Shown here: one piece after another, positions 13,432-15,828 of the stretch
Position numbering within the stretch: position 1 is the first letter of the stretch
How the letters are laid out: every line of letters starts with the position of its first letter
NCBI RefSeq assembly: GCF_030384885.1
Contig: NZ_CP128613.1
Length of the DNA: 64,000 nt
Direction: 5' to 3' (one strand)
Origin: Escherichia coli
GTDB lineage: Bacteria > Pseudomonadota > Gammaproteobacteria > Enterobacterales > Enterobacteriaceae
Translations under genes and position numbers: made by a program
Notes under the pieces: generated by a model
What the model saw: only the letters and a program-made list of their open reading frames with translations
Told to the model about the DNA's origin: nothing
The model's database searches: none

Positions 13432-15018
13432 TTATTGCCCGCGCGTTAACCCCCGCGCGGGTAATTGCTCCATCCATTGCATAAACACCTGCGGCGGCAT
13501 CGCCTTCGCAAAGAACCATCCCTGGCAATAACGCACGCCGCGTTTGCGCAGCCAGTTAACCTGATCCTCAGTTTCTACCCCTTCTGCAATCGTTTTCAGC
13601 CCCAGGCTGTGCGCCAGCTCGATGATGTGTTCCGCAATCAAATGACTGGTTTTATGGGTGGTCAGCGTCTCAACAAACGATTTATCGATTTTCAAAATAT
13701 CAACATTCAATGATTTAAGGTTATGCAAGTTAGAGTAGCCAATACCAAAATCATCAATTGCCACTTCGTAACCGGCCTGGCGGAAAGCCAGAATAATTGG
13801 TGTCATTTTGTCGACATCAAGAAATGCATGTTCAGTCACTTCAAATTTAATTTGCTGTGGACGCACCGCGTATTGCTCTGTTTTCTGATTGGTTCGCGCT
13901 ATCAACCGTGACGTATGAAAATCGGAGGCCGACAGGTTAATAGAAACATAGCGATCGGCATGTGTTGCCAGGTACGCGCCCAGATCGCGGAAGACATTAT
14001 CAATAACATAATCAGTTACCTGTCCGATCATTCCCTCCTTTTCTGCCAGCGGAATAAACTCTGCCGGATTCATTACTTGCCCCTGCTCACCAGGCCAACG
14101 TAACAATGCTTCAGCGCCGATACATTTTTCTGTTTTGATATCGATTATTGGCTGGTAATAAAGGCAAAGTTGATGTTTTTCGAGGGCGCGTTGCAATTTG
14201 CGTTTGGGAGACAAATAGTTTTGTCGAATACGTAGCCAGAGTAATAACAGAACAAGACTCCCCAAAATGCCGGCGGGTAACGCAAAAATAAGATGATTAT
14301 AAAAATGCGCTATAAGACGTTGATATGAAGTCGCAACAATGGCTGCAATTGGGCGTTTTGTCGAATAAACTGTCGCATATAAATAGCCATTTCTTTGTAC
14401 GGTTAAATCATTCAAATGAATCAGCGGAGAAAACGTTGCTGCCGAGGCCTCGTTGCTTAACGAGAAAAAGGTTTTCGTTACCGTATCATACACACCCCAT
14501 TGCAATGTCGGATCATCAGACATCACTTCACTCCAGAATAGAGGGTTGATGACCGCCACATAATTTCCCCGCTGCATATAGGTCATTTTATAGCCAGAGA
14601 AAAAAGGCGTATCGCGGTAATAATAGATAGAAACGTTAGGTTCACGCTTATAATCGGCCGGTGCAATCGTATAACCGTTTACAGGCGCTATCAGCGATGA
14701 GCATAAAAAATGGTTATCACGGGCATAGATCAATTCATTAATATAAAGATAGCCACGAATAATATTCAACATTCGCTTTTGATGGGCCGGAGTGCAAACT
14801 TGCCCCTGATAGCGTTCTGCTGCATCGCTCACTAAATCTGCCTGGCGAATGACCAGCTCGGATTTATCCAGCGCCAGCTGAGCAAAAGTTTGGAGCTGAC
14901 TATTCACTTCTGATTTTGCCCAAAGGAAGGCAATCCATAGCGACAGAATGATGGGAAAGAGAACTAAAAAGATAATGCCCGGCAACGCCAGTAATTGGTG
15001 TCGTGCATGATGACTCAT
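13432..15018 (-). CDS. pdeC: c-di-GMP phosphodiesterase (CSS-motif periplasmic domain plus EAL domain)
   Basis: Track ORF 13432..15027 begins at a TTG; first ATG at 15018 gives 528 aa; two TM segments; EAL-type motifs ([14 protein letters not shown]); K-12 yjcC position. Confidence 0.9.
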
Positions 15019-15301
15019 TGCTATCAATTTCCTGCCTGTTTATACCCGGTCATTGCAAGGCGAGAACCCTGGTTATCGACGTCTTTAGATAAATCTTACG
15101 GTATAAATAGCACTTTTGCCTGATTTGAAATTGATACCTTTTTAATCGTCACCTGAATAAAAATAATTCATTGATATTCAAAATTAATTTCCTACAGGAA
15201 TGCAGAGGCGGCGGGAAGATATGCCCTTAATGCCGCTGAAAAAACACATAATCTGTACGGCAATAAAAGTCACGGCCTAATCTGGCTAACAAACAATCAA
15301 T

Positions 15302-15317
15302 TGTGATATAGTTCACA
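15302..15317. promoter_or_regulatory. CRP-consensus palindrome TGTGA-N6-TCACA
   Basis: TGTGATATAGTTCACA, both half-sites perfect, in the 430-bp pdeC/yjcB intergenic region about 130 bp upstream of yjcB. Confidence 0.45.
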
Positions 15318-15447
15318 AAATTAATGAAACAAACAGAGTGTTTCTTTTTTGTGTTCTGCAAGCCCCGCGATAGCCAGATTGTATCACGCCTCCCGTGAAC
15401 AACGCCGCGCTGTCCAGGGCATCGGCTCTTTTCAGAGGAATTGTTTG

Positions 15448-15729
15448 ATGGCTACCCTCACCACTGGCGTGGTTCTTCTTCGCTGGCAACTTCTTAGTGC
15501 CGTAATGATGTTTCTGGCCAGCACGCTTAACATCCGTTTTCGTCGGTCTGATTATATCGGACTTGCAGTGATCAGCAGCGGTCTCGGCGTGGTTTCCGCC
15601 TGCTGGTTCGCTATGGGATTGCTTGGCATCACAATGGCGGATATCACCGCCATCTGGCACAACATCGAGTCGGTGATGATGGAGCAGATGAATCAGACAC
15701 CACCACAGTGGCCAATGATTTTGACTTGA
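15448..15729 (+). CDS. yjcB: Small inner membrane protein YjcB
   Basis: 93 aa from MATLTTGVVLLRWQ (track ORF 15349..15729 has an upstream extension); hydrophobic; followed by a terminator. Confidence 0.8.
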   Translation: MATLTTGVVLLRWQLLSAVMMFLASTLNIRFRRSDYIGLAVISSGLGVVSACWFAMGLLGITMADITAIWHNIESVMMEQMNQTPPQWPMILT

Positions 15730-15734
15730 TATGT

Positions 15735-15766
15735 AGAAGCCTCCATAACGGAGGCTTCTTTTTTTA
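15735..15766 (+). terminator. Intrinsic terminator of yjcB
   Basis: Stem AGAAGCCTCC/GGAGGCTTCT with loop ATAAC, followed by T7. Confidence 0.8.
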
Positions 15767-15828
15767 TGGCTGGCAGATGCTTTAATCATCCACCTTAAAA
15801 CAATATAACCTATTGTTTTAATGACAAA

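Follow-up and report, generated by a model that had tools for sequence, protein, structure and literature searches.

A consensus CRP palindrome enclosing the −10 element of the Escherichia coli yjcB promoter probably acts as a repressor site

In the intergenic region between the divergent genes pdeC (yjcC) and yjcB of E. coli, a consensus-type CRP palindrome overlaps the core promoter of yjcB. Relative to the mapped transcriptional start of this gene, the two half-sites are located at −18 to −14 and −7 to −3, the centre is at −10.5, and the −10 hexamer forms the spacer between the half-sites. In view of this geometry, of the conservation of the site and of the increase of yjcB transcripts in a crp deletion strain, we consider it likely that cAMP-CRP directly represses yjcB by occluding its core promoter. 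The palindrome was originally noticed as a possible element of catabolite control of pdeC or yjcB. For yjcB this idea is upheld by the effect of the crp deletion and by the position of the site on the −10 element, but pdeC, which is 283 bp away and was listed only as rpoS-dependent in the crp/rpoS transcriptome tables consulted, gives it no support. The classical activation that the original prediction implied is at odds with a centre at −10.5 and with a transcript that rises when crp is deleted.

The window, i.e. the whole 64-kb stretch of DNA that was analysed, belongs to an E. coli chromosome other than that of K-12; over a 701-bp test segment, the identity was 100% with E. coli 2013C-4282 and 96.6% with K-12 MG1655. 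The genes around the site are soxS, soxR, pdeC, yjcB, ssb and uvrA, and the site and its two neighbours are as follows.

13432..15018, minus strand: CDS of pdeC (yjcC), the divergent neighbour, with its ATG at 15018 (RefSeq annotation).
15302..15317, no strand assigned: CRP core palindrome, TGTGA and TCACA around TATAGT (sequence, uniqueness, PWM, conservation, SELEX listing).
15448..15729, plus strand: CDS of yjcB, 93 aa, with its ATG at 15448 (RefSeq annotation; Pfam PF15940).

The RefSeq annotation agrees with the gene identities given in the original prediction. The spacer between the two genes, described there as a long intergenic region of 430 bp, measures 429 bp, with 130 bp from the end of the site to the ATG of yjcB and 283 bp to that of pdeC, which matches the predicted distances closely. 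YjcB is a small membrane protein of the YjcB family, Pfam PF15940, and all listed homologues carry PF15940. No NCBIfam model matches YjcB; the family identity is taken from Pfam. Downstream, the yjcB-ssb spacer is a reported integration hotspot, with an 18-kb Detocs/dGTPase defence island (PMC11728103). At the corresponding place in the window (15730-15828) the spacer is empty of the island and comprises 99 bp with a strong bidirectional terminator at 15735-15759.

The palindrome TGTGATATAGTTCACA was found at 15302-15317, exactly where it had been placed, and its match to TGTGA-N6-TCACA, which had been called perfect, holds at 10/10 core positions. Its centre lies between 15309 and 15310, and an identical 16-mer is present in K-12 at NC_000913.3 4275172-4275187. 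It is the sole exact match on both strands of the window; on average 0.05 exact matches are expected, and any match at all was obtained in 5 of 100 dinucleotide-preserving shuffles. The 22-bp CRP consensus AAATGTGATCTAGATCACATTT is matched by the yjcB site at 16/22 positions. A symmetrised CRP PWM was built from the 101 motif-bearing ChIP-seq sites of ETEC H10407 (Haycocks 2015, S3 Table). With this matrix the yjcB site scores 17.7 bits of a maximum of 21.8, which is higher than 93 of the 101 ChIP-derived sites and about 4 bits above the next-best site in the window. This second-best CRP-like site, TGTGATCGTCCGCACA at 29268-29283 (13.85 bits), is located where qorA and pspG converge, between their 3′ ends, with no obvious promoter as a target. 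The known CRP sites of malE/malK (45839) and aphA (21064) are also found among the top dozen of the window by PWM.

The promoter of yjcB was reported from RpoD SELEX as CTAACA-15-TATAGT (Shimada 2014, PMC3946193); in the window these hexamers are found at 15285-15290 and 15307-15312. Thus TATAGT is itself the 6-bp spacer of the CRP palindrome, and the TG-a preceding it (15304-15306) extends the −10 element. The primary start of yjcB was mapped to position 4275169 on the minus strand of K-12 in a dRNA-seq analysis under antibiotic treatment (PMC12987492), and the following elements of the promoter are referred to it.

15304..15312, plus strand: extended −10 element TG-a-TATAGT of the yjcB promoter, wholly within the CRP palindrome (PMC3946193; TSS).
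15320, plus strand: primary yjcB TSS, an A (PMC12987492; placed by alignment to K-12 NC_000913.3 and by sequence).
15282..15294 (−38 to −26), plus strand: conserved upstream block CTGGCTAACAAAC, including the weak −35-like CTAACA at 15285-15290 (information profile).

This TSS position comes from a single dRNA-seq analysis of antibiotic-treated cells, and a check of the supplements of Kim 2012 as a second source, together with a coordinate search, returned nothing for the yjcB/pdeC region. Relative to the TSS, the hexamer occupies −13 to −8, ending 7 nt before the start, and the TG lies at −16/−15; the best −35 across the enteric clade matches just 3-4 of 6 positions. A TGn motif, a hexamer correctly spaced from the TSS and a weak −35 are the features of an extended −10 sigma-70 promoter. 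The right CRP half-site fills the discriminator (−7 to −3). One base of the site is clearly unfavourable for CRP, the T at position 11 (−1.65 bits, with A preferred), and since it is at the same time the obligatory last T of the −10 hexamer, this is what would be expected of a shared element. It therefore appears that the palindrome's spacer is set by RNA polymerase and its flanking pentamers by CRP. A consensus promoter scan detected no promoter in the pdeC/yjcB spacer; it misses the actual yjcB promoter because of the 15-bp spacer and the weak −35, and its result is thus uninformative.

Upstream of the −10 element, the block from −38 to −26, CTGG[CT][GT]AA[CT]AAA, has a mean of 1.26 bits compared with 0.35 bits further upstream (Escherichia to Atlantibacter). 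Two identities for this block were tried and rejected. As a class II marbox it lacks a conserved GCAC element and ends 11 bp from the −10 hexamer, so that both marbox spacing and RE1 conservation fail; the resemblance to GCAC-N7-YAAA is confined to a minority of genera. As a sigma-54 −24/−12 promoter it showed no fit by eye.

Binding of further regulators at this promoter has been reported. A marbox motif, gcaataaaagtcacg, was reported within the pdeC/yjcB spacer by MarA ChIP-seq in ETEC (PMC5684230 Table 1), and yjcB is also a SoxS ChIP-exo target (reported in PMC5684230).

15260..15274 (−60 to −46), plus strand: MarA marbox motif gcaataaaagtcacg (PMC5684230; located in the window and in ETEC H10407).

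The centre of the MarA peak is within about 10 bp of the equivalent of the yjcB TSS. In Table 1 of PMC5684230 the marbox coordinate for yjcB<>yjcC is 4737238, and the listed sequence is actually found at 4737357-4737371 of H10407; as a control row (ibpA<>yidQ) agrees exactly with RefSeq, this is an inconsistency of one row. Antibiotic induction of the yjcB TSS is among the strongest in the dRNA-seq analysis (PMC12987492), and published data show yjcB to be up under several stresses.

The position of the palindrome decides which kind of CRP action can be expected. CRP sites that activate as class II are centred at −41.5 and those of class I at −61.5, −71.5, −82.5 or −92.5, and a centre at −10.5 is none of these; the expected loss of expression in a crp deletion is likewise contradicted by the data. 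In W3110, deletion of crp raised yjcB at both pH 7.5 and pH 5.5, as determined by RNA-seq and qPCR (PMC13339887, 2026). At pH 5.5, yjcB reached 474 TPM in the crp deletion compared with 156 (log2FC 1.61, q = 8e-6), and acid induced the gene in the wild type (156 versus 32 TPM; PMC13339887). In this study, the set of genes up in both crp comparisons and also up by acid consists of yjcB and gspE only. The rise of yjcB in the crp deletion is the effect predicted from a CRP operator lying on the −10 element. A quantitative precedent is provided by synthetic promoters whose core elements are overlain by a CRP site and in which occlusion gives cAMP-dependent repression (Forcier et al. 2018, PMC6301791).

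From the position of the site and the sign of the crp effect we infer occupancy of the exact 16-mer by CRP in vivo, a direct action of crp on yjcB, and occlusion as the mechanism. The palindrome would then be a high-affinity cAMP-CRP operator superimposed on the yjcB core promoter. A CRP dimer bound at −10.5, with the DNA bent around it, would be sterically incompatible with sigma-70 on the −10 and extended −10 elements and with promoter melting. At high cAMP, i.e. on a poor carbon source, yjcB would be repressed, and at low cAMP or upon loss of crp it would be de-repressed. On top of this gate, MarA or SoxS bound just upstream, as well as acid, would raise transcription of yjcB. The simplest picture is that of a stress- and acid-inducible extended −10 promoter which cAMP-CRP can shut off.

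Conservation was analysed at 54 yjcB orthologue loci, one genome per species, which were collected by a search anchored on the protein, in which the DNA motif played no part. The palindrome was present in 54/54 loci, 66-148 bp upstream of the ATG, 49 times in its exact form and five times with CGTGA, which is frequent among real CRP sites. Five lineages fetched later (Cronobacter, Trabulsiella, Enterobacter hormaechei, Salmonella enterica subsp. enterica and an Erwinia/Pantoea lineage) all carry sites with zero mismatches, so that the palindrome is kept in 59/59 orthologue loci, 54 of them exact and five with CGTGA. Among 5,426 complete E. coli genomes, at least 5,298 carry an intact 16-mer, a count composed of two flank haplotypes with 4,259 and 1,039 genomes. 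One locus came from a 9.5-kb contig labelled Flavobacterium paronense CECT 8460 (NZ_JAUFQN010000013.1). It carries an E. coli-type pdeC-yjcB-ssb arrangement with 97-100% amino-acid identity and a promoter region identical to that of K-12; here the Flavobacterium assembly has almost certainly been contaminated with E. coli DNA.

In the 43 loci ranging from Escherichia to Atlantibacter, the mean information content is 1.90 bits for TGTGA, 1.88 for the spacer and 2.00 for TCACA. The flanks of these enteric loci reach 0.35 bits further upstream and 0.6-0.7 bits downstream, and TGATA[TCG]AGT was found in 43/43 of them. The 10 loci from Erwinia and Serratia show no variation in the half-sites (2.0 bits), and their spacer has 0.60 bits and is not a −10 element. 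Invariant half-sites around a variable spacer in this outgroup argue that the half-sites are selected independently of the −10 element. The site of E. hormaechei, TGTGATATAGCTCACA, may be read in the same sense: both half-sites are intact about 79 bp upstream of yjcB, the spacer reads TATAGC, without the final T of the −10, and this points likewise to selection on the half-sites themselves. The yjcB leader of this species is much shorter, about 61 nt.

A putative second promoter register was recognised in these outgroups. A predicted extended −10 of the form TG[AC]TA[TC]AAT abuts the left half-site in 10/10 Erwinia/Serratia loci and in an extra Erwinia locus, and shares its last T with the start of TGTGA. 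At six of the ten loci, a −35 resembling TTCAAA or TTGAGC (4/6 matches to TTGACA) is located 16-18 bp upstream; the other four have weaker candidates. Should this be the promoter, transcription in Erwinia and Serratia would start inside the CRP spacer and CRP would be centred at about +1.5, which is again an occlusion position. Measured from the palindrome, this −10 is displaced upstream by exactly 10 bp compared with its enteric counterpart. A tentative evolutionary interpretation, which we hold at somewhat less than even confidence, is that the operator has been fixed and the promoter has shifted over it by 10 bp, or one helical turn, so that CRP is centred at about +1.5 in Erwiniaceae and Serratia and at −10.5 in Enterobacteriaceae. 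The outcome would be a 16-bp composite, read base for base by sigma-70 and by CRP, that makes the expression of a small membrane protein, induced by acid and through Mar/Sox, depend on carbon status. If true, this would be a compact natural example of how a promoter can turn over around an operator that is conserved, and likewise of a −10 element embedded in a CRP spacer.

That CRP recognises this region is already known. In the PhyloScan study of 2007, yjcB ranked 2nd to 16th among genome-wide Crp predictions, and in the genomic SELEX of CRP the spacer yjcB<>yjcC is among the targets at whole-spacer resolution (Shimada 2011, PMC3105977). A search of the literature for a footprint, EMSA or promoter mutagenesis of the yjcB CRP site returned none. 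Data from cells gave a less clear signal: the CRP ChIP-seq of ETEC H10407 (Haycocks 2015) lists a weak yjcB peak ('FAT <1') with no motif called. Its centre at 4737089 falls inside the yjcB ORF, about 232 bp from the palindrome at 4737314-4737329 (NC_017633.1); the coordinates of paper and RefSeq are equal for H10407, as was checked with an unrelated row of a table by the same group.

The weak and displaced peak, recorded despite a PWM score in the top decile, is one argument for a different explanation, namely that the site binds CRP in vitro and, like many 'extra' CRP sites, is mostly unoccupied or inconsequential in cells, the effect of crp being an indirect one through stress, acid or growth. 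In favour of it, yjcB is induced by acid and responds to many stresses, and acid-resistance genes rise in the same crp mutant (PMC13339887). Against it, the half-sites are near-invariant in 59 loci of Enterobacteriaceae, Erwiniaceae and Serratia while the flanks and the outgroup spacer decay, which is hard to explain without a function. Moreover, in PMC13339887 yjcB is absent from the rpoS lists and lacks the rpoS-dependent pattern of the gad genes, and a consensus CRP site on the −10 element predicts the exact sign of the crp effect. We therefore regard an indirect effect as unlikely, although it is the strongest competitor of direct repression by occlusion.

Whether the site could serve the other gene of the spacer, pdeC for a c-di-GMP phosphodiesterase, either on its own or jointly with yjcB, has to be considered since SELEX is blind to which gene is the target of a site in a shared spacer and since a c-di-GMP enzyme is very often encoded divergently next to yjcB. 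The distances argue against it: beyond the 283 bp to the ATG of pdeC, the sole proposed pdeC promoter is about 270 bp off, beside the ATG, and in three other genera the start codon of the divergent gene is 360-460 bp from the site. This promoter, TTTTCA-16-TATAAA, was proposed for K-12 from RpoD SELEX (PMC3946193); its −35 reads TTCTCG in the window strain (15056-15061) and the published pattern is absent from the window, so that conservation of the predicted promoter fails already among E. coli strains. A mapped TSS of pdeC was not found in the literature. In those columns of PMC13339887 that could be consulted, pdeC is listed as down in rpoS comparisons only and in no crp column. Furthermore, PdeC is divergently upstream in just 27 of the first 54 loci; the other 27 have no PdeC within 1.2 kb and nevertheless keep the distance between palindrome and yjcB. 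On these grounds a role for the palindrome in pdeC control is improbable, and pdeC is probably not among its targets.

The neighbours in those other 27 loci are soxS/soxR directly, a divergent PAS-domain protein, a DgcN/YfiN-like protein (Erwinia) or a PBP2-like protein (Serratia). A CSS-EAL protein, PdeC, is divergent from yjcB in Escherichia, Salmonella, Citrobacter and Cronobacter, a PAS-domain protein in Kosakonia, Phytobacter and Atlantibacter, and a GGDEF protein in E. hormaechei; in ETEC H10407, pdeC is annotated as a pseudogene with an internal stop. The divergent c-di-GMP enzymes at yjcB loci are thus non-orthologous, with soxS/soxR and the PBP2-like gene of Serratia as exceptions from the rule. 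Their recurrence may hint at a functional link of YjcB to c-di-GMP signalling, or at a locus of high turnover.

The leader of yjcB is long, and this bears on a further possibility.

15320..15447, plus strand: 5′ leader of yjcB, 128 nt (TSS and ATG positions).

A leader of this length and a TSS known from one dataset leave room for a second, downstream promoter from which CRP could activate yjcB in a class II (−41.5) or class I (−61.5) arrangement. At the places where its −10 would have to lie, about 15339-15344 or 15359-15364, there is no conserved −10-like hexamer and conservation amounts to 0.6 bits; the consensus promoter scan was empty in the leader as well, and the crp deletion raises yjcB mRNA instead of lowering it. 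This makes activation from within the leader very improbable. The 5′ end of the leader contains an inverted repeat, TGAAACA-N7-TGTTTC, at 15325-15345 (+6 to +26), which is followed by a T-run in E. coli. Hairpins of different sequence (ACGG/CCGT, GCAA/TTGC, TGAC/GTCA) occur at the same leader position in other genera, and the repeat may be a stem-loop at the 5′ end of the mRNA. When a 7-bp helix was specified manually, 82% of the cells were paired, with seven double changes at one pair, which is modest covariation. RNAalifold returned no consensus structure in the leader, the whole-leader fold had a z of −0.87, and Rfam contained nothing relevant for spacer or leader.

Least plausible, and on a par with the downstream promoter, is that the palindrome is no functional CRP site at all, being either a chance-symmetric core promoter or the operator of a regulator with CRP-like specificity. 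Constraint on the promoter could partly explain why the whole 16-mer including its spacer is conserved in the enteric clade, but TGTGA and TCACA are invariant in Erwinia and Serratia around a free spacer that contains no −10 hexamer, and both half-sites persist in E. hormaechei, where the last T of the −10 is gone. We know of no other enterobacterial regulator that reads TGTGA-N6-TCACA. CRP itself selects the spacer in genomic SELEX (PMC3105977).

With respect to previous genome-wide studies, PhyloScan 2007 and Shimada 2011 had indicated the same intergenic region, without a position relative to the TSS, a direction of regulation or a target gene. The present analysis adds the placement of the centre at −10.5, yjcB as the gene concerned, the extent to which the site is conserved, and the pair of registers around a fixed operator. 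A CRP site that had been listed and left uninterpreted thereby receives a direction, a target gene and a mechanism, the likely one being repression of yjcB by occlusion. In this way carbon status would be linked to a widely conserved small membrane protein that is induced by multiple stresses. The general understanding of CRP is unchanged by such a case, which is ordinary in kind and of interest as a neat composite of operator and −10 element. With a spacer fixed by the −10 and a second register in relatives, the locus also offers a natural test-bed for the competition between CRP and RNA polymerase.

Among known systems, the mar/sox/rob regulon promoters resemble yjcB in that binding of MarA and SoxS is reported there likewise; compared with their marboxes, the one at yjcB is a partial match with a weak RE2, in forward orientation and at a class-I-like distance. 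Class I and class II promoters such as lac (−61.5) and galP1 (−41.5) share the consensus-type TGTGA-N6-TCACA site with yjcB, and at these promoters the cAMP-CRP dimer binds upstream of the sigma-70 promoter. At yjcB the centre at −10.5 is not a class I or class II position, and activating contacts through AR1 or AR2 are therefore impossible. A search for published descriptions of the exact arrangement, a −10 element as the spacer of a CRP palindrome, found none. The cyaA P2 promoter of E. coli is a natural CRP-repressed promoter whose CRP site overlaps the core promoter. Both cyaA P2 and the synthetic occlusion promoters with CRP at +0.5 (PMC6301791) have the protein, the 16-bp core motif and the logic of cAMP-dependent competition in common with what is proposed for yjcB, and the sign of the crp effect on yjcB agrees with theirs. 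Unlike in these promoters, the −10 of yjcB is the palindrome spacer and its TG is part of the left half-site, so that a single 16-mer serves both proteins.
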